Shown here: positions 1 through 62,095 of the stretch, one piece after another | Layout of the letters: each line of letters starts with the position of its first letter | How positions within the stretch are numbered: the first letter of the stretch is position 1 | Source: Gammaproteobacteria bacterium | Lineage (GTDB): Bacteria > Pseudomonadota > Gammaproteobacteria > Magnimaribacterales > TMED112 | NCBI GenBank assembly: GCA_038133485.1 | Contig: JAYPTH010000005.1 | Coordinates: forward strand, 247-64,246 | Reading direction: 5' to 3' | DNA: 64,000 bases | Notes under the pieces: generated by a model | The model's database searches: none | The model's input: only the letters and a program-made list of their open reading frames with translations | What the model was told of the DNA's origin: nothing | Translations under genes and position numbers: made by a program

Positions 1-68
1 AGAGGTGGAATCGAACCACCGACACAAGGATTTTCAGTCCTTTGCTCTACCAACTGAGCTATCTGGGC
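1..68 (-). tRNA. tRNA-Phe (anticodon GAA), 3' acceptor end cut by the window edge
   Basis: Reverse complement reads GCCCAGATAGCTCAGTTGGTAGAGCAAAGGACTGAAAATCCTTGTGTCGGTGGTTCGATTCCACCTCT. It shows a D-arm, anticodon loop CTGAAAA and T-arm GGTGG-TTCGATT-CCACC. The last ~8 nt lie beyond position 1. Confidence 0.93.
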
Positions 69-5612: not shown

Positions 5613-7019
5613 TTAGACGCTATAGTACATATCAAATTCAACTGGATGTGTAGACATTCTTAATCTATCTACTTCTTCCATCTTTAATGCTATGTAGTCA
5701 TCAATCAGGTTATCTGTAAATACTCCACCTTCTTTTAAGAAAGCACGATCTTTATCTAAAGCTTGCAAAGCTTCATCTAATGAACTGCAAACGGTTTTGA
5801 ATCGTCTTAATTCTCTCGCAGATGCTTCATATAGATCTAAATCACCTGGTTTGCCTGGATCAATCTTATTTTTGATACCATCTAGGCCAGCCATTAGCAT
5901 TGCAGCAAAAGTAAAATAAGGGTTACCAGATGCATCTGGAAATCTAACCTCTATTCTTGCTGCTTTAGGATTGCTCTCATAAGGTATTCTTATGGAAGCT
6001 GATCTGTTTTTATTTGAATATGTAAGAATTACTGGAGCTTCGAATCCAGGCACAAGTCTTTTGTAGCTATTTGTAGTTGCATTTGAGAATGCATTGATTG
6101 CTCGAGCATGCTTCATAATTCCACCAATGTAGTAAAGCGCTGTTTGGCTTAAACCACCGTATTCATTACCAGTGAATAGGTTAACTCCATCTTTGACAAG
6201 TGATTGGTGACAATGCATGCCACTACCATTATCGCCAACAAGTGGTTTTGGCATAAATGTTGCAGTTTTACCAAAATTGAAAGCAGTATTGTGTACGCAA
6301 TACTTAAAGGTTTGTATATCATCAGCTTTCTTTGTGAGAGAGTTAAATTTAACTCCGATTTCACATTGACCAGCTGTTCCAACTTCATGGTGATGGACCT
6401 CTGTTTCAAGACCAAAATCTTGGCATGCTTTGCAAGCAGCAGCTCTAAGGTCAGCTAAAGAGTCAACAGGTGGGACTGGAAAATAACCGCCTTTCACTCC
6501 AGGCCTATGACCTAGATTTCCATCTTCGTATTCAGTATCTGTTTCCCAAGCAGCTTCTTCAGACGATATTTGGTACGACATCTTCTGCATCTCTGTTGAC
6601 CATCTAATATCATCAAAAACGAAGAATTCTGGTTCAGGACCAAAAAATGCTTCATCAGCAACACCTTCTGATCTCATAAATGCTTCAGCTTTTTTGGCTA
6701 CTGATCTAGGATCTTTTTCATAACCTAGACCATCGCTTGGTTCAACAATATCACATCTCAAAATGACCAATGGATCATCGGAAAAAACATCAAGAACGCT
6801 GGTGCTATCATCTGGCATCAGGATCATATCTGATTCATTGATTGGCTTCCAACCGGCAATAGAAGAACCATCAAACATCTTCCCTGTTTTAAAAAACCCT
6901 GCATCCACTGTATCAGCAGAGACGGTAACATGCTGCTCTTTACCTTTAGTATCAGTAAAGCGTAGGTCAACCCATTCAGCTTTTGAATCGGCAATAAGTT
7001 TTAAAGTATTTTTAGACAT
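5613..7019 (-). CDS. glnA: Glutamine synthetase type I
   Basis: 468 aa with [37 protein letters not shown] and SIRIP motifs. GGAG Shine-Dalgarno lies 8 nt upstream of the ATG. Confidence 0.97.
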
Positions 7020-7100
7020 AAAAATGCTCCAATTAAATTAAAAAATTTTTGCATTTTTGCTCTGCAGGATATTTAGAAATTAAACTCGATCCTGTTTAAC

Positions 7101-7154
7101 GGGCGCGTTCCTTCAGCTTTCGCTTACTTCCGTCTTCTTTCGAAGATGAACGAT
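7101..7154 (-). promoter_or_regulatory. Glutamine riboswitch-like aptamer (glnA RNA motif), copy proximal to glnA
   Basis: Minus-strand RNA AUCGUUCAUCUUCGAAAGAAGACGGAAGUAAGCGAAAGCUGAAGGAACGCGCCC. It has CGUUC/GAACG closing helix, UCUUC-GAAA-GAAGA hairpin, ACGGAAGUA core and GAAGGAACGC 3' strand. Located in the 5' leader of glnA. Confidence 0.8.
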
Positions 7155-7170
7155 TTACGTTTCCTGTAAA

Positions 7171-7224
7171 CGGCGCGTTCCTTCAGTATTCACTTACTTC
7201 CGTCTTCTTTCGAAGATGAACGAT
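7171..7224 (-). promoter_or_regulatory. Glutamine riboswitch-like aptamer (glnA RNA motif), distal copy
   Basis: Minus-strand RNA AUCGUUCAUCUUCGAAAGAAGACGGAAGUAAGUGAAUACUGAAGGAACGCGCCG, exactly 70 nt upstream of the other copy. Its small hairpin AGU-GAAU-ACU versus AGC-GAAA-GCU shows a compensatory pair change. Confidence 0.8.
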
Positions 7225-7334
7225 TTAACTCTTTACCTAAAAAGGCCCTTTTTTTACCATGGAGTATGGTGCAAAATTAAAAATGCTCATTAAATTTAGC
7301 TTTTTTCTGCCAAAATGGCAAATTTTTGATCAAA

Positions 7335-7913
7335 TTAGCTGAAATGAATCAAAATACCTGGAATTTTAGACTCTAAATCATCAAAACTATGAGATCCGCC
7401 TTGATCAACTACTATATTAGTGCCCTTAAAATATTTCTCAGCATATCTATAGTCTAAAGTTTCATCTTCAGTTTGCAGGAGGACCAAGAAATTATCTTTA
7501 TGCTGTAATTCGTCAATAAATATATCTTCAAGGCTATCGATCCAAGCTTGATCTATAAAATATTTCTCACCGGTATTTGGATTTTCATTATCTCCTCGAT
7601 TGTTTTCAAAGATCTTATATGCCCAAACGGCGGGATTGATCATGACCGCTTTGAGATTATATTTTTCTGATAAAAAGGTTGCGTAATAACCACCTAATGA
7701 GCTGCCGATTAGATGAACTTTTCGATAAGGAAGCTCATTTTCAATAATTGCTGATAATTGTTCAATTGCCTCGGTTGGGTGAGACCTTAAAGTAACAGAG
7801 GTCAGCTCAAAATGGTCATTGTCTTTAAGCTGATTCTCAAGCAATAATGCTTTACGAGCTCCTTTAAAGGAATTCCATCCATGAATATAAATAATCAAAT
7901 TTTTATTGCTCAT
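7335..7913 (-). CDS. yqiA: YqiA-family esterase (alpha/beta hydrolase, UPF0227)
   Basis: LIIYIHGWNSF N-terminus, GSSLGGYYA nucleophile elbow, C-terminal GGSHSF. Start set to the ATG at 7913 (MSNKNLIIYIHGW). Confidence 0.75.
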   Translation of the reverse strand: MSNKNLIIYIHGWNSFKGARKALLLENQLKDNDHFELTSVTLRSHPTEAIEQLSAIIENELPYRKVHLIGSSLGGYYATFLSEKYNLKAVMINPAVWAYKIFENNRGDNENPNTGEKYFIDQAWIDSLEDIFIDELQHKDNFLVLLQTEDETLDYRYAEKYFKGTNIVVDQGGSHSFDDLESKIPGILIHFS

Positions 7914-8316
7914 AGAAACCACTTGTAAGAATAATATCAAGAACCTCAGTTAAAAACCTATTTTGCTGTAATTTTTCATCTGAAGATTTTGGGAAGCTTT
8001 CCTTGCTGAAAGGAAACTTGCTAGGAGCATAACCATTAAATGAGCTTACTTCACATAATTCAGCATCATGATAGATATTTAAATTGAACTCTAGAGAGTG
8101 CAGCAGCTTATGTTCTAGATTAGAAAAATTGAGACTGCACATCCAAGTATGATTCGACAATTTCTTCTTTTTGATTTGGGCGCTATAGGCAGTTTCATGT
8201 ATTTTGTTTCTGAGTACAAATAAATCCTTTTTACTTACAGATAGAATTTTATTTATCCTGATGTAGTTCGCTGAACATACAGAAATATGACCATTAGTTT
8301 TTTTGTATTCAGACAT
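7903..8316 (-). CDS. yqiB: DUF1249 protein (YqiB-like)
   Basis: LNIYHDAELCEVSS and DEKLQQNRFLTEVLDIIL match E. coli YqiB (VRLYHDAMVAEVCS, DEKHQINQFLADWLRYCL). Sits upstream of yqiA as in enterics. Start set to MSEYKK (8316). Confidence 0.7.
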   Translation of the reverse strand: MSEYKKTNGHISVCSANYIRINKILSVSKKDLFVLRNKIHETAYSAQIKKKKLSNHTWMCSLNFSNLEHKLLHSLEFNLNIYHDAELCEVSSFNGYAPSKFPFSKESFPKSSDEKLQQNRFLTEVLDIILTSGFYEQ

Positions 8317-10747: not shown

Positions 10748-10918
10748 ATGGATTATAAAAGATGGGAATGCATAGTTTGTGGATGGATTTATGATGAAGA
10801 AAAAGGTCATCCTGAGGAAGGCATAGCTCCTGGCACTAGGTGGGAAGATGTTCCTAATGACTGGGTTTGTCCTGAATGTGGTGTTGGTAAAGAAGATTTT
10901 GATATGATTGAGTTATGA
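10748..10918 (+). CDS. Rubredoxin
   Basis: WECIVCGWIYDE...DWVCPECG gives two CxxC knuckles in a 56-aa product starting at the ATG at 10748. Confidence 0.9.
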   Translation: MDYKRWECIVCGWIYDEEKGHPEEGIAPGTRWEDVPNDWVCPECGVGKEDFDMIEL

Positions 10919-12174
10919 CAGAACTTTCAGCACCAAAAAATCTTACAAGAAATGTATTAATCGGTATGGGAGCAGGCTTTATTGTAGGAGCCTTTTTCTT
11001 TTATACAAATATCACGCCGCAGTTTTTTGAAGATTTCTTTTCCACTTATATTTTTAGCCTAGGTGGAGATATTTTTAAAAATCTTCTTCGACTAATTGTT
11101 GTGCCACTTGTATTCTTTTCCTTGGTTTCAGGAATTTCATCACTTACCGATATGGCAAGATTAGGGTCAATAGCTTATAAGACAGTCGGACTATATTTGC
11201 TTACAACTGCTATTGCAGTATCTCTTGCACTTTTCTTTGGATGGGTAACTAATTTAGGTTCTGGCTTTTCTGGAGATCTTGTCCCTACCGAGTTAGCTGG
11301 AGGCGAAGCCAGTTTCTACGATACGGTAATGCGAATCTTCCCAAGCAATATGTTTGGAGCTTTTGTTGAGAATAATATGCTAGGCATTGTTTTTATCAGT
11401 ATTTTATTTGGTATGGCATTAAATGCTACTGACTCAATAACAGGCGGGTTATCAAAAAGTTTTGAAAAATTAAATACCGTATTTTTGAAGATAGTCCTTT
11501 TGGTCATGCAATTTGCCCCAATCGGAGTTTTTTGTTTAATTGGCACTTACGTTGCAACTAAAGGTTTGGATATTTTTGGCGATGTTGCTCAGTACGTGGT
11601 GCTATTAATTTTTGTTTTAGTCTTTCATTTAATTTTTACTTATTCCTTAATACTGACAATTTTTGCACGTTTAAACCCTTTAAAATTCTTTGCCAAGATG
11701 AAAGATGTAATGCTTTTTGCTTTTTCAACTTCATCTAGTGCGGCAACTATTCCAGTGACTTTAAAAACGGTTACACAAGACCTAGGTGTTAAAAAGGATG
11801 TTGGCTCATTTGTTGTACCAGTAGGAGCAACTATAAATATGGATGGCACCGCAATCATGCAGGGCTTAGCAACAGTTTTTATTGCAGGAATAACTCCTGG
11901 AATTGAGCTAGGGTTAGTCGAATATGTGCAGATAATTTTCTTAGCTGTAATCACTTCAATTGGAACTGCAGCAGTGCCTTCAGCAGGTATAGTTACACTT
12001 ACAATCATACTAAGTCAGCTTGGCATTCCACTAGAAGCTATTGGCCTCATATTGGCTGTAGATAGGATTCTTGACATGTTAAGAACTTCAATAAATGTTT
12101 GCGGAGATGCGGCAGTTTCTTGTATAGTAGCTAAAACAGAGAGGGGGCTAGACGAGGAAGTCTTTAATAGCTAG
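10915..12174 (+). CDS. Dicarboxylate/amino acid:cation (Na+/H+) symporter, DAACS family
   Basis: SSSAATIPV, NMDGTA and VDRILDMLRTSINVCGD motifs, ~8 TM plus re-entrant loops, 419 aa. Confidence 0.9.
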   Translation: MTELSAPKNLTRNVLIGMGAGFIVGAFFFYTNITPQFFEDFFSTYIFSLGGDIFKNLLRLIVVPLVFFSLVSGISSLTDMARLGSIAYKTVGLYLLTTAIAVSLALFFGWVTNLGSGFSGDLVPTELAGGEASFYDTVMRIFPSNMFGAFVENNMLGIVFISILFGMALNATDSITGGLSKSFEKLNTVFLKIVLLVMQFAPIGVFCLIGTYVATKGLDIFGDVAQYVVLLIFVLVFHLIFTYSLILTIFARLNPLKFFAKMKDVMLFAFSTSSSAATIPVTLKTVTQDLGVKKDVGSFVVPVGATINMDGTAIMQGLATVFIAGITPGIELGLVEYVQIIFLAVITSIGTAAVPSAGIVTLTIILSQLGIPLEAIGLILAVDRILDMLRTSINVCGDAAVSCIVAKTERGLDEEVFNS

Positions 12175-12184
12175 CAAAAAAACT

Positions 12185-14206
12185 ATGGAAATTTTTGAAA
12201 CTTTTATTATTGGACCAATGACACCATGGGGCCCATTTGTTGTGGGCTTGGTTGGTTTATTTTGTGCTTTTGTACTTTTTGCATTAATCATGAAATACCC
12301 AGAGGGCAACGCTAAAGTCGCAAAAATTGGGGAGCAAATTCATCTTGGGGCAAAGGTATTTATGATTACCGAATATAAAATTTTGTTACCTGTGTTAATA
12401 GCTTTAGTTTTAGCTTGTGGCTTTTCACCACTTGGATGGAATACAGCATTAGCAATTGGAGTTGGGGCGCTATCTTCAGCTATAGCAGGCTTTATTGGTA
12501 TGTATTCAGCAACAAAAGCAAATGTTAGAACAGCAACAGCAGCAGAAGAGTCCGGACAAGAAAGAGCATTATCAATATCATTTTTTGGCGGATCAATCAT
12601 GGGTCTTTGTGTTGCATCAATGGGTTTAGTTGGTTTAGGCGGCTTATATGTATATTTTGTTAACGCTCTAACTGACGATTACAAAACAATAGCATCAGCT
12701 CTGGAAGGGTTTGGAGTTGGCGCATCAGCGGTTGCATTATTTTCAAGAGTTGGAGGCGGCATTTATACAAAAAGTGCAGATGTAGGCGCCGATCTTGTAG
12801 GAAAAATTGAAGCAGGCATACCTGAAGATGATCCTAGAAACCCAGGAGTTATTGCTGACAATGTGGGAGACAATGTAGGAGATATAGCAGGGATGGGGTC
12901 TGATATATTTGAATCTTATTGTGGAGCAATGATTGCTTCTATTGCTATAGCCGCAACACTAAGCAATCCAGATCTAATGTTTTTGCCACTATGGCTTGCA
13001 GCATCTGGTTTATTCTGCTCATTAATAGGCATAGGGATTGTTAGATCACAAGTATCTCGGTCACCAGCAGTTGCTTTAAGGTTTGGCACTTTCTTCTCAC
13101 CAATTATTTTTCTAATTTTTGCTGGACTTAGCATCTATTATTCACCAAATCTAGAAATGAAATATTTCTATTCAATATTAACTGGAGCAGTGGGAGGCAT
13201 ATTAATTGGCTTAATTACAGAATATTATACTGGTGGCGCTACACCTGAATCACCCGTTGGTAAAATTGCAAAATCAGGAGAAACTGGTCCTGCTACAGTT
13301 ATTATTTCAGGCTTAAGCGTTGGAATGATTTCTGTTGTTATGCCAGTTTTGGTTATTGCAGCAACCATTGGTATCTCTACTTATTTTTCAGGCCTTTATG
13401 GCGTAGGCATAGCAGCTGTCGGCATGCTCTCAACAGTAGGCATTACTATGGCAATAGATGCTTATGGTCCTGTCGCTGATAATGCTGGTGGTATCGCTGA
13501 GATGAGTGGTATGAAGAGTGAAGTAAGAGAAATAACAGATTCGCTTGACGAGTTAGGAAATACTACTGCTGCAATAGGTAAGGGTTTTGCTATTGGAGCA
13601 GCAGCATTAGCAGCATTGGCAATTATTGCGGCGTTTACACAAGTAACAAAAGTAGAGCTACTGCTTTCAGATCCAAGAGTTTTGGTTGGCATGTTTATTG
13701 GAGGTTCAATACCATTCTTAGTGTCTTCAATAACTATGACTGCAGTTGGGGATGCGGCTTTTGAAATGATAGAAGAAATCAGAAGGCAATTCAGAGAGAT
13801 ACCTGGTCTCCTTGAAGGTAAAGCAGATCCCGATACAGCCAAATGTGTTGATATTGCCACTAATGCCGCTTTGAAAAAAATGTTACTACCTGGAGCTATA
13901 GCAATCTTAAGTCCAATCGTTGTTGGGTTTGCATTGGGAGCTGTTGAGTTAGGTGGTATGTTAGCTGGAGCTCTCTTGGGCTGTGTACTTTTAGCATTAA
14001 TGATGGCCAATGCAGGTGGTGCATGGGATAACGCTAAAAAGTTTGTTGAGAAAGGTAATTTTGGTGGCAAGGGAACCGAAACTCATTCGGCAGCTGTTGT
14101 AGGTGATACAGTTGGTGACCCATTTAAAGATACATCAGGACCATCCATGAATATCTTAATTAATGTAATGGCAATCGTGAGCTTAGTTATAGCTCCACTT
14201 CTTTAA
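12185..14206 (+). CDS. hppA: Membrane-integral ion-pumping pyrophosphatase (K+-dependent-type signature)
   Basis: 673 aa polytopic protein with [31 protein letters not shown] and [14 protein letters not shown] motifs. Confidence 0.93.
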
Positions 14207-51769: not shown

Positions 51770-54739
51770 ATGAAATTAACTAAAACACTTGTAATTATAT
51801 TCTCTACTCTTTTCGTTGCTGCCTGTGGCGGTGGTGGAAGTTCATCTCCTGAACCAACACCAGCCCCAACACCAGCTCCAACACCGGCCCCAACACCAGC
51901 CCCAACACCAGCTCCAACACCGGCCCCAGAGTCTTGTTTGGTTGGTGCAGATACAGGAGTCACTACTCAGGATCTCGATGGCATTTCTAAGAAAGTCTGT
52001 GTATTAACATTCCCAGAAACTGCACCAATAACAGGTGATGTTACCTTGAGTAATGATGCTATATATGCCCTAAATGGTGCGGTATATGTTGGAAACGGAA
52101 TTGGTGAAGATGGTAGTGATGCTGGCGCTGATGGTAACCTTACGATCGAAGCCGGTACAACAATTTCAGGAACAGCTGGTGCAGGCTTTGAAAATGCCAC
52201 AGCATGGGTAACAGCTCTTAATGAGGGCGCAGCGGATGTAGAAGTCTCAGATTCAGACGTAGATTATCTAGTAGTGAAGCCTGGTTCTAAAATATTTGTT
52301 GAAGGAAGTTCATCTGCACCAGTGATAATGACAGGTGCAAGTGATTTGACTGGTGAAGTTAGAGATGGCTCGGAAGCTCAATGGGGCGGACTAGTTATTT
52401 CAGGCTTAGCAACACAAAATAAATGTAATGAAGCTGATTTAGGCACTGCCTCTTGCGTTGCAAATGGTGAAGGTGCTTCAGGATATTATGGTGGTACTGA
52501 CGATGCAGATAGCTCCGGTTCTATTGAATATCTTCAAGTGAAATATGCTGGTTACAAGTTTTCAAATGAGGACGAATTAAACGGTATTGCATTTCAAGCT
52601 GTGGGTTCAGGAACAGTGCTTGATTACATACAGGTTCACAATGGCTCAGACGATGGAATTGAGTTTTTTGGTGGCACAGCTGGCATTAAACATTTTGTAG
52701 TGACTGGTGCATCTGACGATTCTTTAGATTGGACCGATGGTTGGAGAGGTTTTGCCCAGTATGGTGTAATAGTTCAGACACTTTTCCCTGCTACAGATTC
52801 TAGTCGTAGCAAAGATAATGTCATTGAAGCTGATAATTATGGCTCAGATATGGACAGGGCACCAAGGTCTTTTCCAAAGATAGCAAACATAACCATGGTT
52901 CAAGATTATGGTGGTGATACTTTGCTACTAAGGGAAGGTACAGGTGCTTACATCTTAAATTCAATTGTTGCTGGAAACCCTGACGATTCAAGTTATTGCT
53001 TGGATGTGGATGACAATGAAACATATCGTTTTGCTGGAACAGCTGGGAACATGACCAATATAAGTTTTGATGGATCTATTTTTGATTCAGTCAAATGTAG
53101 TGCCATGGCTGCATCTAAAGGGTGGGTTGATCCATCCTCAGCTGATGAAGGTGATGATGTATTTGATATCGGAGCTGAGCTTGAAAATCTAGATTCAGTT
53201 CAGTTTGCTGCAACAGGCCTACATGGCTCAAAGAGGAATGCAGCTTATTTGTCTCATCCACTCGTAAATTCTTACTATGTAGAAAAAGTCGCTAACGCAA
53301 ATATTCTTGACTCAAACCTTGTAACGGAAGATTTTATTGGTGGTGTTAAAAGCGATGCAGAAGATTGGACTAAAGGTTGGACATATGGGTTGCATATCTC
53401 CAATTCAGATATGCAAGACTTTTGCCCATTTGGAACAGCTTTAACAACAATTAAAGACGATGGTGGTGCTGCATGTGAAATTACAGCATCGCAAGCAGCT
53501 GAAAACAATATCAGGCTTGTTGGCGGCGGTCTGCCTTATGTCATGAAAGGCAAGCTTGTTGTTGGTGATGGCACAGCTGAAGGTGCACAATACTTGCAAA
53601 TTGATCCAGGTGTCACAGTCTACAGCGATCAAGTTGCAGGCGAAGGCTCTTTAACAGATCTGGATTACGTTGTAGTTCCAACTTATTCAAAAATCTTGGT
53701 CAACGGTGCCCCAGGAGCACCAGTAACCTTTACATCAAGCAGAGAGGTTAGAACTTCTGGCGATAGTTCCAGCTCAACATTGTCCAAAGAAACAACCAAT
53801 GATTGGGGAGGCCTGGTTATTAATGGTCTGGCATCGCAGAATAAATGCAACATCAGTGATATCGGAACAGCTGCATGTACTGCTGATGGTGAAGGAGCTT
53901 CAGGAAGCTATGGTGGTACCAATGATGCCGATAACAGTGGCAACATATTCTACGGAGTTGTGAAATATGCCGGAAGAAAATTTAACAATGAAGACGAACT
54001 AAATGGTGTCGCTTTCCAAGCCGTCGGCAATAAGACTGAAATTGATTATCTGCAAACTTTCAATACTTCAGATGATGGAGTGGAATTCTTCGGAGGTACA
54101 GTCAATGCAAAACACCTATTGGTTATGAGTGCATCTGATGATTCTATAGACTGGACAGATGGATGGCGCGGGAAAGTTCAGCACGCTATTGTATGGCAAA
54201 ATCAGGGACAAGAATTTGCTGTGGACAGGTCAATAGAAGCTGATAACTATGGGTCCGATATGGACAGAACTCCAAGATCCATGCCAATGTTTGCCAACTT
54301 AACAATAGTTAGCCAAGATGGTCAGGCAGTGCTCTTAAGAGAAGGAACAGGACTGCACATCTTTAACTCTGTCGTGGCAGACGAAGGTGCCAGCACATGT
54401 TGGGATATAGATGATGATACCACTTACGATTTCAATGCCGATGGTGTGGCTGGTGAAGGACATGTTTATGATGGGAACTTATTCTCTTGCGCAACATTAG
54501 CACAAGAAGATTCAAGTGGACCATCAATTGCTCAAATTGAAGCTTTATTGTCATCCAATACTAATACAGCTTCAGCAGGTGGTGGATCACTATCTGGTTA
54601 CTGCAATGGAAGTGTTGAGTCAGGGCTTACTCCTGTAGCAATTGACGATGCATTTTTTGATGCTACAGACTATGTTGGAGCTTGTGCATCAGCGGAAACC
54701 GATTGGACTCTAAATTGGGCGTTTAAACCATCTGAATAG
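51770..54739 (+). CDS. Large lipoprotein with (TPAP)6 linker and two homologous ~450-aa modules, function unknown
   Basis: AGGAG RBS and lipobox FSTLFVAACGGGG. Both halves share WGGLVI.GLA.QNKCN..GTA.C.A.GEGASG.YGGT.DAD.SG.I.Y..VKYAG.KF.NEDELNG.AFQAVG..DY.Q...SDDG.EFFGGT...KH..V..ASDDS.DWTDGWRG...EADNYGSDMDR.PRS.P..AN.T. Confidence 0.8.
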   Translation: MKLTKTLVIIFSTLFVAACGGGGSSSPEPTPAPTPAPTPAPTPAPTPAPTPAPESCLVGADTGVTTQDLDGISKKVCVLTFPETAPITGDVTLSNDAIYALNGAVYVGNGIGEDGSDAGADGNLTIEAGTTISGTAGAGFENATAWVTALNEGAADVEVSDSDVDYLVVKPGSKIFVEGSSSAPVIMTGASDLTGEVRDGSEAQWGGLVISGLATQNKCNEADLGTASCVANGEGASGYYGGTDDADSSGSIEYLQVKYAGYKFSNEDELNGIAFQAVGSGTVLDYIQVHNGSDDGIEFFGGTAGIKHFVVTGASDDSLDWTDGWRGFAQYGVIVQTLFPATDSSRSKDNVIEADNYGSDMDRAPRSFPKIANITMVQDYGGDTLLLREGTGAYILNSIVAGNPDDSSYCLDVDDNETYRFAGTAGNMTNISFDGSIFDSVKCSAMAASKGWVDPSSADEGDDVFDIGAELENLDSVQFAATGLHGSKRNAAYLSHPLVNSYYVEKVANANILDSNLVTEDFIGGVKSDAEDWTKGWTYGLHISNSDMQDFCPFGTALTTIKDDGGAACEITASQAAENNIRLVGGGLPYVMKGKLVVGDGTAEGAQYLQIDPGVTVYSDQVAGEGSLTDLDYVVVPTYSKILVNGAPGAPVTFTSSREVRTSGDSSSSTLSKETTNDWGGLVINGLASQNKCNISDIGTAACTADGEGASGSYGGTNDADNSGNIFYGVVKYAGRKFNNEDELNGVAFQAVGNKTEIDYLQTFNTSDDGVEFFGGTVNAKHLLVMSASDDSIDWTDGWRGKVQHAIVWQNQGQEFAVDRSIEADNYGSDMDRTPRSMPMFANLTIVSQDGQAVLLREGTGLHIFNSVVADEGASTCWDIDDDTTYDFNADGVAGEGHVYDGNLFSCATLAQEDSSGPSIAQIEALLSSNTNTASAGGGSLSGYCNGSVESGLTPVAIDDAFFDATDYVGACASAETDWTLNWAFKPSE
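51857..51928 (+). repeat. 12-nt tandem repeat x6, organised as a 36-nt unit x2, encoding the (TPAP)n linker
   Basis: The unit ACACCAGCCCCA ACACCAGCTCCA ACACCGGCCCCA is repeated twice exactly. It uses the same 12-mer and the same codon phase as the repeat at 50483-50542. Confidence 0.95.
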
Positions 54740-54774
54740 CCTTTGTATAAATCCCTTTAATTATTGAGTCCGTA

Positions 54775-54799
54775 CTGCCCCGAAAGGGGCAGTTTTTTT
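54775..54799 (+). terminator. Rho-independent terminator
   Basis: CTGCCCC-GAAA-GGGGCAG stem-loop (7 GC-rich bp, GNRA-type tetraloop) followed by TTTTTTT, 36 nt after the lipoprotein stop. Confidence 0.85.
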
Positions 54800-54852
54800 A
54801 TTCTTAACCTATTTGTCACATTATTGATTCAAAAGCTGTGTACTCTTAAACC

Positions 54853-57396
54853 GTGAAAACTTATTTAAAAATTGCACTCCTCCTCGCTTCCACTTTTTTA
54901 TTTGCCCAGGAAAGCGATACAGAAATTAACACTGAAACAATAGAGGACGTTGTAGTTTCTGTCAGCTTTATCCCTGATGAGAAAAGAGATACTAGTGAGA
55001 TTTCCAATGTTCTTTCTTCAGAGGATATGACTTTAGCTGGAGATAGTGCAGCATCAGATGCTCTTAAAAGGGTTACAGGTTTAAGTTTGGTAAAGGGAAA
55101 ATACGTATATGTTAGAGGCTTAGGTGAGCGTTACTCATCTGCTTTACTCAATGGTGTATTACTACCAAGCCCAGAACCTCTTAAACGTGTTGTACCTTTT
55201 GATATTTTTCCAACCTCAGTGCTAGAAAGTGTTCTAGTACAAAAAACTTACTCTGCTCAATATCCAGGAGAATTTGGTGGTGGAGTTATTGATATGAGAA
55301 CAAAATTGATACCAGATTCCAAATTTTATGAATTTGGCATCTCCTTTGCCTATGATTCTCTTGCAACGAACACAAATGCACCTTTAATGCCGGGATTTAG
55401 CGGCGACTGGAGCGGCTATGATGATGGGTCTAGAAACTTACCTTCAAGCCTGCAGCCATTTTACGCAAATGGGGATTTTGTTTCACTCTCCAATGGGTCA
55501 TATGCTGAATTAACCACGGCAGGACAAAATTTTGGTGGCGAATGGATGCCGGTTGATTCAAAGTTAAACCCAGCTTTAGGCTTGAATTTTAGCTATGGCA
55601 ATTCTTTCGATTTTAACTTTGGCAAGGTTGGCATTGTTTTAAGTGGGGGATACGATAACGACTCCTCCAATACCCCAGACATCAAAAGAACAAATTATGC
55701 TAGAGGCTCAAATAATAATTTGGTTTCAAGAGACACTTATGATGTGCAAAAAACAAACAACCAAATAGACACAAATATTTTAACTTCTATTGGATGGGAT
55801 ATCGATGGAATGAATTACTTGCAACTTACTAACTTGCTAGTTAGGAAGACCGATAACAGATTAACTTTAAGTGAAGGCAAGAATGTTGAGGCTGATTTTT
55901 TTGCAAAAAGTACAAAATTTGAGTGGGTGGAGAGACAAATTAATTCCCTAACCCTCTCAGGAAATCATGATTTCAATTTTGGATTGTATATTGATTGGAG
56001 AATAGGGCATGCCGATGGGAAGCGAGTAGCCCCATTCGAAAGAGAATATTTCTATGAATGTGAAGAATCCTTCATTGAAAATTGTGGTGGAAAATATGAA
56101 TTTTCACGTCGTTCTGATAGTAATTCAACACAATTTTCATGGCTTAATGATGATGCAACTGAGGTTGCCATAGATTTCACGTATCCTTTCCAATCTACAT
56201 CTAATGAGCTGGAACTAAGGTTTGGTGTTAAGCAGTCCACTAAAGAACGACAAACTGATGTAAAAAGATACCGATTTTTACCAGATTTTGTGAATGGCTC
56301 ATTGTTTTCTTCACAAGATTTTCGAAGACAAACCATTGATAAAATTATGGCTTCAGAAAATTTCAGACTAGATAGATCTGGATTAATTTTATTAGAAGAA
56401 ACACTTAATACCGATAACTACGAAGGGAGTTTGACAATTGATGCAGCGTATATCTCTTTAGAAACAACATTAAATGATAACCTCGAAATCACTACTGGTT
56501 TTAGATCAGAAAATTCTGATATTGAGGTAACAACACAAACTTACTTTGGGGGATTAAATTCAGCTGTATCAGCCGACGAGCTTAATAAAGTATTGCCTGC
56601 TTTAACTGCAACCTACAGCTTTAACGATAGTATGCAGCTGAGGTTTGGCTATAGTGAAACATTATCAAGACCACAATTTAGAGAAATGAGCCCCGTTCTT
56701 TATGTCAATTTTGATACTGACAGGCTCGAAAGAGGCTTCCTTGGCTTAAAATCTTCTGAGATAACTAATTTGGACTTACGTTACGAATGGTATTTTGGGT
56801 TCAATGAATCTTTAACTCTGTCATTTTTCAACAAAGATTTTATAAACCCAATTGAACAAGTTCTTGAAGCAGCAGCAACTAGCGATTATGTGAGTTACCG
56901 TAATGCACAGTCAGCAGAACTTAATGGTGTAGAGTTTGAGGTTGAAAAACAACTTGGAGAGCTAATAACTGGATATGATTTTTTTGTTAAGTTTAACTAT
57001 ACCCTGACAGAATCAAATGCAGTCACCAATCCAGAGTTCGTAGTTTTGTCTTCCTATGACGACAGACCTTTGGTGGGTCAGCCTGAGGATATTGTTAATT
57101 TTCAATTTGGATATTACGGCGCCAATGATACTCAGCTGAGCCTCAACTACAACGATGTTGGTGAAAGAATAAGAGAGCTTGGCACAGATGTCATTCCAAA
57201 TGTTACCGAAGATCTACCACCATTGCTTGACTTAGTTTTTAGCAAGGAAATACAAGCCTGGGATGGCACATTAGATCTATCAATCAAATGGAGAAATATT
57301 CTTGAAGATCAGTACGAAGCGTTACAAGGCAGTGAAGTATTTGAATCTTATTCTTCTAGTTCTGCTATTTCATTTGGTTTGAAATATAGCTATTAA
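54853..57396 (+). CDS. TonB-dependent outer membrane receptor
   Basis: Signal peptide ...LFAQE, TonB-box-like EDVVVSV, plug region (RVTGLSLVKGKYVYVRGLGERYS), long beta-barrel, terminal aromatic ...GLKYSY. GTG start. Confidence 0.9.
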   Translation: MKTYLKIALLLASTFLFAQESDTEINTETIEDVVVSVSFIPDEKRDTSEISNVLSSEDMTLAGDSAASDALKRVTGLSLVKGKYVYVRGLGERYSSALLNGVLLPSPEPLKRVVPFDIFPTSVLESVLVQKTYSAQYPGEFGGGVIDMRTKLIPDSKFYEFGISFAYDSLATNTNAPLMPGFSGDWSGYDDGSRNLPSSLQPFYANGDFVSLSNGSYAELTTAGQNFGGEWMPVDSKLNPALGLNFSYGNSFDFNFGKVGIVLSGGYDNDSSNTPDIKRTNYARGSNNNLVSRDTYDVQKTNNQIDTNILTSIGWDIDGMNYLQLTNLLVRKTDNRLTLSEGKNVEADFFAKSTKFEWVERQINSLTLSGNHDFNFGLYIDWRIGHADGKRVAPFEREYFYECEESFIENCGGKYEFSRRSDSNSTQFSWLNDDATEVAIDFTYPFQSTSNELELRFGVKQSTKERQTDVKRYRFLPDFVNGSLFSSQDFRRQTIDKIMASENFRLDRSGLILLEETLNTDNYEGSLTIDAAYISLETTLNDNLEITTGFRSENSDIEVTTQTYFGGLNSAVSADELNKVLPALTATYSFNDSMQLRFGYSETLSRPQFREMSPVLYVNFDTDRLERGFLGLKSSEITNLDLRYEWYFGFNESLTLSFFNKDFINPIEQVLEAAATSDYVSYRNAQSAELNGVEFEVEKQLGELITGYDFFVKFNYTLTESNAVTNPEFVVLSSYDDRPLVGQPEDIVNFQFGYYGANDTQLSLNYNDVGERIRELGTDVIPNVTEDLPPLLDLVFSKEIQAWDGTLDLSIKWRNILEDQYEALQGSEVFESYSSSSAISFGLKYSY

Positions 57397-62018: not shown

Positions 62019-62095
<77 letters not shown>

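Follow-up and report, generated by a model that had tools for sequence, protein, structure and literature searches.

Tandem type-1 glutamine riboswitches precede glnA in a gammaproteobacterium and may control glutamine synthetase synthesis

Control of glutamine synthetase (GS) has been studied mostly via protein cascades, namely PII, GlnD, NtrBC and adenylylation. Here we ask whether glnA, the GS gene, is instead controlled by an RNA sensor in its own leader in one gammaproteobacterium, and in which direction. The window, a 64-kb stretch (64,000 nucleotides) of contig JAYPTH010000005.1, carries glnA on the minus strand, and a first-pass annotation made from the letters alone had noticed two glutamine-riboswitch-like elements on the same strand upstream of it. 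We scanned the whole window with cmscan against Rfam 15. Two matches to RF01739 (glutamine riboswitch, glnA leader) were found on the minus strand. The gene and the two matches are as follows.

5613..7019, minus strand: glnA, type I GS of 468 aa (TIGR00653, 630 bits; cut-off 429)
7224-7172, minus strand: aptamer 1 (RF01739, 67.9 bits, E 6.4e-13)
7154-7102, minus strand: aptamer 2 (RF01739, 70.4 bits, E 1.3e-13)

Both matches score nearly twice the RF01739 gathering score of 35, near the upper end of the family range. Each covers model positions 1-53 of 53, with maximal posterior probabilities and zero non-canonical pairs flagged. Together with two tRNAs they make up the four Rfam 15 matches above gathering score in the whole window. 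A rescan of the leader alone repeated both matches, and the Rfam scan of the leader showed no RNA family above noise besides RF01739. With RF01704 (glutamine-II), the leader gave 14.8 bits against a gathering score of 33, in partial overlap with aptamer 2. From the covariance-model matches it is essentially certain that the glnA leader carries a tandem type-1 glutamine riboswitch, and the identity and strand first proposed both held. The end of aptamer 2 lies 82 nt from the glnA start codon (7019).

The period of the two aptamers is exactly 70 nt, as first described, with a linker of 17 nt. Their length by the model is 53 nt, and the 54 nt of the first-pass annotation included one extra base. 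The copies are identical at 50 of 53 positions, and all three differences lie within P3, which reads AGC-GAAA-GCU in aptamer 2 and AGU-GAAU-ACU in aptamer 1. These represent a C-G to U-A double change and one loop change, in agreement with the earlier observation that the internal differences are confined to a small hairpin. Because the copies are so similar, they point to a duplication, which is common to the sister species described below.

In aptamer 1, the helices are P1 (CGUUC/GAACG), P2 (UCUUC-GAAA-GAAGA) and P3 (AGU-GAAU-ACU), and standard pairs keep the three-stem P1/P2/P3 junction in both copies. The family-invariant junction nucleotides AUCGUUCA, ACGGAAGUA and GAAGGAACGC are all present, including the linchpin G and C, and the junction/E-loop consensus ACGGAAGUA ... 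GAAGGAAC is matched letter for letter in both copies. Both also contain the linchpin partners, the second G of CGG and the C directly 3' of P1. The linchpin positions were assigned from the crystallised construct and Klahn's description, which places the C at 7175 in aptamer 1 and at 7105 in aptamer 2. Among the glnA-associated aptamers that we gathered (n = 95), 27 sequence variants of P2 and 15 of P3 were found, with complementary stem ends.

We compared the leader with related sequences. Twenty related contigs collapsed to three further leader haplotypes, one group of which represents a sister species. In glnA, the sister species shows 16% nucleotide divergence, with changes at 189 of 469 third codon positions (40%), whereas the stretch between the start of aptamer 1 and the ATG, 205 nt long, has about 10 differences. 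Aptamer 1 differs at one P2-loop base, two P3-loop bases and one A-U pair changed to G-U, and the sole difference in aptamer 2 is one P2-loop base; all five are in loops or preserve pairing. The linker has 0 differences in 17 nt. In the platform, the region between aptamer 2 and the start codon, the differences are U7089C, G7060U and a patch of indels and substitutions in the A/U spacer (7050-7036), and a segment at 7058-7051, called anti-RBS segment X below (RBS, ribosome-binding site), is invariant. The pattern of substitution shows strong purifying selection across the whole leader. Because the leader is nearly unchanged against a third-position divergence of 40% in glnA, there is strong evidence that the whole leader, beyond the aptamers alone, is a functional RNA.

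Two further elements were located upstream of the aptamers.

7293..7321, minus strand: sigma-70-like promoter, TTGCCA (7321-7316), 17-nt spacer and TAAATT (7298-7293), consensus scan 9/12
7278..7288, minus strand: RBS mimic Y', GAGCAUUUUUA, which repeats the ribosome-binding region of glnA (Y, 7029-7019) exactly over 11 nt

The promoter had already been pointed out in the first-pass annotation, and it is present where it was placed. In a region this rich in AT, sites of this kind are no more frequent than chance predicts (9 vs 7.5 +/- 3.0 expected), and what speaks for this one is that sister-species conservation starts exactly at its -35 hexamer, the sequence further upstream being divergent. 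Since the promoter-like site is conserved, we infer that transcription proceeds through the aptamers into glnA. The transcription start is predicted near 7287-7284, which gives an A/U-rich leader of about 265 nt. In the sister species, 10 of the 11 nt of the mimic are kept. A leader/RBS repeat of at least 11 nt occurred in 0.1% of dinucleotide shuffles (p about 0.001; post hoc test).

Some other features of this region were recorded. A perfect 13-bp palindrome, TGCCATTTTGGCA (7308-7320), shares bases with the -35 hexamer and is unchanged in the sister species. It includes a sigma-54-like TGGCA whose GC partner is one base too near, and may serve as a binding site for a regulator or be what is left of a glnAp2 promoter. 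The 5' leader contains a hairpin, CCAU-ACUCC-AUGG (7257-7269, minus strand), which is conserved in the sister species. Its CUCCA loop is complementary to the glnA Shine-Dalgarno (SD) sequence (UGGAG, 7031-7027), and a 5-mer match of this kind is expected by chance in about one quarter of such leaders. Two small leader open reading frames (ORFs), one with an AUG at 7054 (17 codons) and one with an AUG at 7290, were considered as conserved peptides and rejected, because they are lost or frame-shifted in the sister species.

In related Gammaproteobacteria, glnA is arranged differently. A genome-collection scan provided 80 gammaproteobacterial glnA loci of 64-71% identity, and the counts given here hold among the matches listed. 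The aptamer core was found in 0 of the 80. A sigma-54 activator with the GAFTGA motif was encoded within 3 kb downstream of glnA in 62 of 73 relatives, and a strict TGGCAY-N5-YTGCW promoter was located 56-230 nt upstream of glnA in 35 of 77. The 64-kb window contains no GAFTGA motif in any frame and no linked ntrB-ntrC downstream of its glnA. The sole candidate for a sigma-54 promoter at this gene, TTGGCAGAAAAAAGCT (7312-7297), was rejected since it has 9, not 10, bases between GG and GC, where GG-N10-GC (TGGCAC-N5-TTGCW) was the criterion. Judged by sequence, the classical protein-based arrangement is absent at the window glnA and a predicted RNA sensor is present.

We examined the platform by folding with RNAfold and by minimum free energy (MFE) structures of the leader. 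The following elements were obtained.

7155..7171, minus strand: 17-nt linker, which with C7172 can form the hairpin CGUUU-ACAGG-AAACG (7172-7158)
7065..7100, minus strand: post-aptamer segment with two mutually exclusive hairpins, H_A and H_B (RNAfold)
7270..7286, minus strand: 5' strand of helix P0 (GCAUUUUU..UUUUGCA), pairing with 7066-7051 (MFE fold)
7051..7066, minus strand: 3' strand of P0, including anti-RBS segment X (MFE fold)
7036..7050, minus strand: A/U spacer, with indels and substitutions in the sister species
7001..7032, minus strand: RBS hairpin (RNAfold, -5.6 kcal/mol)

H_A pairs GUUAAAC (7100-7094) with GUUUAAU (7085-7079), and H_B pairs CAGGAU (7094-7089) with AUCCUG (7070-7065). 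RNAfold gave H_B in the window and H_A in the sister species, in which U7089 is C. P0 is a leader-closing helix of about 15 bp around both aptamers; it is predicted in both species, and the sister-species differences within it are confined to an internal loop. Segment X, AAAAAUGC (7058-7051), is 8 nt long and has two complements, the 5' mimic (7286-7279) and the RBS with the SD-AUG spacer (7027-7020). In the post hoc shuffle test, chance alone gives an RBS complement of 8 nt with p = 0.08. The extended Y':X duplex was calculated at -14.2 kcal/mol and X:Y at -7.9 kcal/mol. In the RBS hairpin, the SD GGAG (7030-7027) pairs with CUUU of codons 5-6 and AUUUUUA (7025-7019) pairs with UAAAAAU (7014-7008), so that the start codon AUG (7019-7017) lies inside it. 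All constraint states gave this hairpin, and in them the SD was unpaired with a probability of about 0.1. The parts that a mimic/anti-RBS/RBS relay would need are thus in place, and they are conserved.

An intrinsic terminator after the aptamers was also sought and rejected: between 7101 and 7020 the minus strand has no terminator-like hairpin followed by a U-tract. The U-run at 7045-7040 is interrupted in the sister species. Because no terminator-like site was found and the U-run is not conserved, the A/U spacer does not appear to be a terminator tail, and control would be translational rather than by termination.

From these data, we consider it very likely that the leader controls glnA in cis and likely that repression is exerted at the level of translation. 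On balance we favor the reading that the tandem aptamers sense L-glutamine and control GS synthesis in cis, most likely by repressing glnA translation at high glutamine. By established aptamer mechanics, glutamine binding would capture C7175 and C7105 and remodel the helices flanking the aptamers. AAAAAUGC (7058-7051) could then pair with either of two identical sequences, the RBS (7027-7020) or the 5' mimic (7286-7279), and pairing with the mimic would close the long helix around both aptamers. Folding of the aptamers with glutamine may select between these pairings, and hence determine ribosome access to the SD/AUG region (hairpin 7032-7001). The RNA sensor would occupy the place of the sigma-54 promoter and NtrBC of related Gammaproteobacteria. 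We put forward the mimic/anti-RBS relay itself with low confidence. The fuller picture is tentative and perhaps the less probable one: an uncharacterised OFF platform in which the 11-nt RBS mimic forms part of the closing helix and the anti-RBS segment chooses its partner according to glutamine, replacing sigma-54/NtrBC at glnA in a streamlined gammaproteobacterium and perhaps acquired from SAR11-like alphaproteobacteria, whose glnA genes regularly follow tandem aptamers.

Several results weigh against this proposal. In constraint folding, the accessibility of the SD and AUG was the same with one or both aptamers free or locked. Pairing of X with the RBS was not predicted even when the 5' mimic was blocked, and blocking left SD/AUG accessibility unchanged. 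The duplex energy between the 5' and 3' parts of the leader was no better than that of shuffles (p = 0.17), and the whole-leader folding z-score was just -1.5. No compensatory changes were found in the proposed platform helices between the two species-level sequences. The shuffle tests of the repeat and its complement were post hoc, run once the repeat had been noticed. The OFF direction is borrowed from lineages whose platforms are non-homologous in sequence. In addition, duplexes between aptamers and downstream sequence were no better than shuffles, in the window and an alphaproteobacterial lineage alike.

The direction of the switch was considered in light of known members of the family. 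The glnA RNA motif was named for glnA leaders in marine metagenomes, with GS among the genes downstream of the motif and tandem copies noted (Weinberg 2010, PMC2864571). It occurs in cyanobacteria and marine metagenomes and is often tandem (PMC2864571; PMC6212724). In Synechocystis, the element of gifB, which encodes the GS-inactivating factor, is an ON switch (Klahn 2018, PMC6212724), because the tail that starts at the linchpin C otherwise masks the RBS. As described by Ren 2015, cited here through Klahn 2018 (PMC6212724), glutamine captures the C directly 3' of P1, which pairs with the second G of CGG, and this capture melts the helix attached to P1 (PMC6212724). The background given in the first-pass annotation agrees with these papers. 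Its view that the placement before glnA is surprising does not stand, as this placement is the original one and was also noted by Klahn 2018. Type-1 riboswitches upstream of glnA in marine samples are described there with taxon and effect left open, and negative regulation of such a glnA is judged a reasonable expectation (Klahn 2018, PMC6212724). RF01739 has also been mentioned in passing, without analysis, in SAR86 metagenome-assembled genomes (MAGs) (PMC12379486) and in pelagiphages/methylophages, phages of SAR11 and OM43 (PMC9004378). In the literature, we found no report placing glnA-linked glutamine riboswitches in Gammaproteobacteria.

We also collected other glnA-linked aptamers from metagenomes. 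The search pattern, which combined the aptamer 3' strand with the DLRFT codons, lacked specificity; 17 of the loci returned were true aptamer-glnA loci, which split into two alphaproteobacterial lineages. One, of low GC, has a single aptamer. Its GlnA is 57-60% identical to that of the window, its nearest named relatives are Rhodospirillales, and its gene order is glnB (PII), TTGACA promoter, one aptamer, glnA. Relatives at 74% identity have glnB-glnA without an aptamer. In the single-aptamer lineage, the linchpin C is the first base of a conserved hairpin, CGGUAU...AUACCG, and constraining the aptamer to its bound state lowered SD accessibility in 15 of 15 sequences. A consensus TTGACA/TAnnAT promoter stands directly before the aptamer, for example at positions 690-744 of one locus (L338). 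A conserved downstream AAUAAGC block is complementary to the 5' half of P3, and two members with an altered P3 (GCAUAUGC) show a matching altered downstream block.

The other lineage is SAR11-like, with GlnA 52% identical to that of the window and database names including Pelagibacteraceae and Alphaproteobacteria. All sampled members (74-95% GlnA identity), including the NCBI MAG GCA_002717485.1 (contig PBDW01000007.1), carry two aptamers in tandem, at a spacing of 64-73 nt and located 75-100 nt before the ATG. The order is mostly glnB-[aptamers]-glnA-gyrB; the MAG GCA_002717485.1, from Pelagibacteraceae, lacks glnB at this locus and carries two tRNA genes in a long upstream spacer. Aptamer 2 is followed by a conserved block, UUUC(C)AUAAC, which in the MFE folds of all sublineages is base-paired to the SD or to the start-codon region. 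Its partner varies by sublineage, being UUAUGAAA in some and UAUGGAGG in another. Together with the adjoining GCAUG, the block is complementary to the inter-aptamer linker C(+1)AUGC-AAAA-GUUAU, which starts at the linchpin C of aptamer 1. The arrangement predicts that SAR11-like leaders act as a sequestor/anti-sequestor relay that is OFF on glutamine, because the strand at the ligand-captured C complements the RBS-sequestering block and not the RBS. Among the sequences collected, tandem aptamers before glnA are common in marine alphaproteobacteria, and the window has, by its layout, the same tandem design in another class. For the window, we favor the OFF direction because of physiology and by analogy with the SAR11-like and single-aptamer leaders. 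The first-pass annotation had reasoned that placement before the GS gene requires an OFF response or a different platform, which is reasonable and agrees with our platform analysis; it is still a matter of inference.

The lack of any glutamine-dependent change at the RBS in our folding suggests that the output may lie elsewhere. Genuine aptamers might act on elongation or stability, through Rho-dependent termination, a non-canonical attenuator or RNase access, with glutamine still lowering glnA mRNA. The long A/U-rich leader (~265 nt) with its U-run at 7045-7040 would suit such a mechanism, and several related leaders have U-tracts behind weak helices. However, the minus strand from 7101 to 7020 offers no terminator-like hairpin with a U-tract, and the U-run is broken in the sister species though the flanking platform is invariant. 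Read as a terminator, moreover, the U-tract helix of the single-aptamer lineage would give ON logic, and two of its members have no U-tract. We regard action on elongation or stability as unlikely.

An ON switch, by which glutamine raises GS synthesis, for instance through release of the constitutive SD/AUG hairpin, seems less probable again. The sole experimentally characterised family members are ON switches (Klahn 2018, PMC6212724), and folding predicts a weak default sequestration of the glnA RBS (-5.6 kcal/mol), which an activating switch could relieve. But glutamine boosting its own synthetase contradicts every known logic of GS control, the same study deems negative regulation reasonable (PMC6212724), and the SAR11-like strand at the ligand-captured C complements an RBS-sequestering block, giving OFF. 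Finally, the aptamers could be a decaying or neutral insertion, such as a horizontally acquired remnant, with glnA governed by proteins at the promoter, for example at TGCCATTTTGGCA. Close gammaproteobacterial relatives do without the aptamer, and the conserved perfect 13-bp palindrome overlaps the -35 hexamer. Yet a protein operator and a riboswitch can coexist, both aptamers have scores close to the upper limit of the family, and they are near-invariant against 40% synonymous-site divergence, their five differences being in loops or pair-preserving; we consider such an insertion highly improbable. Glutamine-dependent repression of glnA translation is the reading we retain.

The host was assessed from GlnA and the gene content of the window. 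GlnA aligns full length to its homologues. In a protein search, matches of 97-100% came only from estuarine and river-plume metagenome contigs of identical synteny, the Amazon plume among the sources, and the next matches, at 72%, belonged to Spongiibacter, Halieaceae and other Gammaproteobacteria, with no match between 72% and 97% identity. Because matches fall from 97% to 72% and are then gammaproteobacterial, assignment of the host, an uncultured marine or estuarine bacterium, to an isolated low-GC gammaproteobacterial lineage is supported; the GC content of the window is 34-41%. The first-pass annotation had suggested a gammaproteobacterial host from synteny, and these best named relatives, together with the recG, spoT, gmk, rph, pyrE, ubiA and yqiA-type genes, uphold this. 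The window also contains pyrB, tsaD, priA, pcnB, hemL, tyrS and genes for TonB-dependent receptors, and no nitrogen regulator was among the genes identified in its 64 kb. Upstream of glnA lies an ORF for a YqiA-like esterase on the same strand (7940..7335), separated by a 315-nt spacer that is the largest inter-ORF gap in the window, and downstream is a convergent rhodanese-like gene.

Other observations were made in the window and in the searches. A gene for a GltP/DctA-family glutamate/dicarboxylate symporter is followed directly by one for a Na+-translocating pyrophosphatase (983 bits) at 10915-14206 (+). Two large adjoining ORFs lie at 51770-57396 (+), the first (989 aa) without an NCBIfam match and the second (847 aa) encoding a TonB-dependent receptor. 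A free-standing tRNA-Ile(GAU) is located at 62019-62095 (+), outside any rRNA operon, and a tRNA at 1-68 (-) is truncated by the window edge. The aptamer core is very common in IMG/VR contigs (at least 120 stretches), several of which are tandem with the copies 53-57 nt apart; this abundance fits the published glutamine riboswitches in pelagiphages and cyanophages.

This kind of element and its association with glnA were already known. New here are that the host is a gammaproteobacterium, that its glnA has apparently lost the sigma-54/NtrBC arrangement and that the platform is readable and strongly conserved. The glutamine riboswitches tested so far act indirectly and positively, via the cyanobacterial GS-inactivating factor (PMC6212724). 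The question left by Klahn 2018, in which organisms the aptamer directly precedes glnA and what effect glutamine has there, becomes testable, as the window provides a concrete host for such an aptamer, and one whose relatives use NtrBC. A complete conserved leader with defined candidate elements is a template for binding, toeprinting and reporter assays. In abundant, streamlined heterotrophs of the sea, a single RNA may take the place of multi-protein nitrogen sensing, and the two alphaproteobacterial lineages together with the window hint at widespread direct control of GS by RNA in surface waters of the ocean.

Compared with known systems, the closest in aptamer structure is the cyanobacterial type-1 riboswitch (RF01739, Synechocystis gifB), with the same P1/P2/P3, E-loop nucleotides and linchpin G and C. 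Both act or are expected to act in cis, in the leader of a gene on which GS activity depends. In cyanobacteria there is usually one aptamer, the target is the GS-inactivating factor and the switch is ON, whereas the window has two aptamers, targets glnA and is expected to be OFF. Unlike the cyanobacterial tail, that of the window is not complementary to the RBS; its 82-nt platform has a separate anti-RBS segment and an RBS mimic. The glnA motif copies of marine metagenomes have the same layout, a type-1 aptamer, sometimes tandem, directly before the GS gene, but the published cases are without taxonomic assignment or platform analysis (Klahn 2018, PMC6212724). The window GlnA is 72% identical to the Cellvibrionales type and 52-60% to the riboswitch-bearing alphaproteobacterial proteins, from which the window also differs in an unrelated platform sequence and in having a yqiA-like esterase gene, not glnB, as upstream neighbour.

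Among other riboswitches, the glycine riboswitch likewise has two aptamers for the same ligand, a short linker and one shared expression platform, and the predicted helix that joins the 5' leader to the region after aptamer 2 is a glycine-riboswitch-like feature of the window; its aptamer fold is unrelated to that of the glutamine aptamer. Glutamine is also the ligand of the glutamine-II riboswitch (Downstream-peptide motif, RF01704), and some conserved core sequence is common to both types, but glutamine-II is a pseudoknot fold of picocyanobacteria and differs from the type-1 fold. Sigma-54/NtrBC control in glnALG-type operons has the same role, coupling GS synthesis to nitrogen status via glutamine. 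That control is protein-based and transcriptional, whereas the leader described here is RNA-based.

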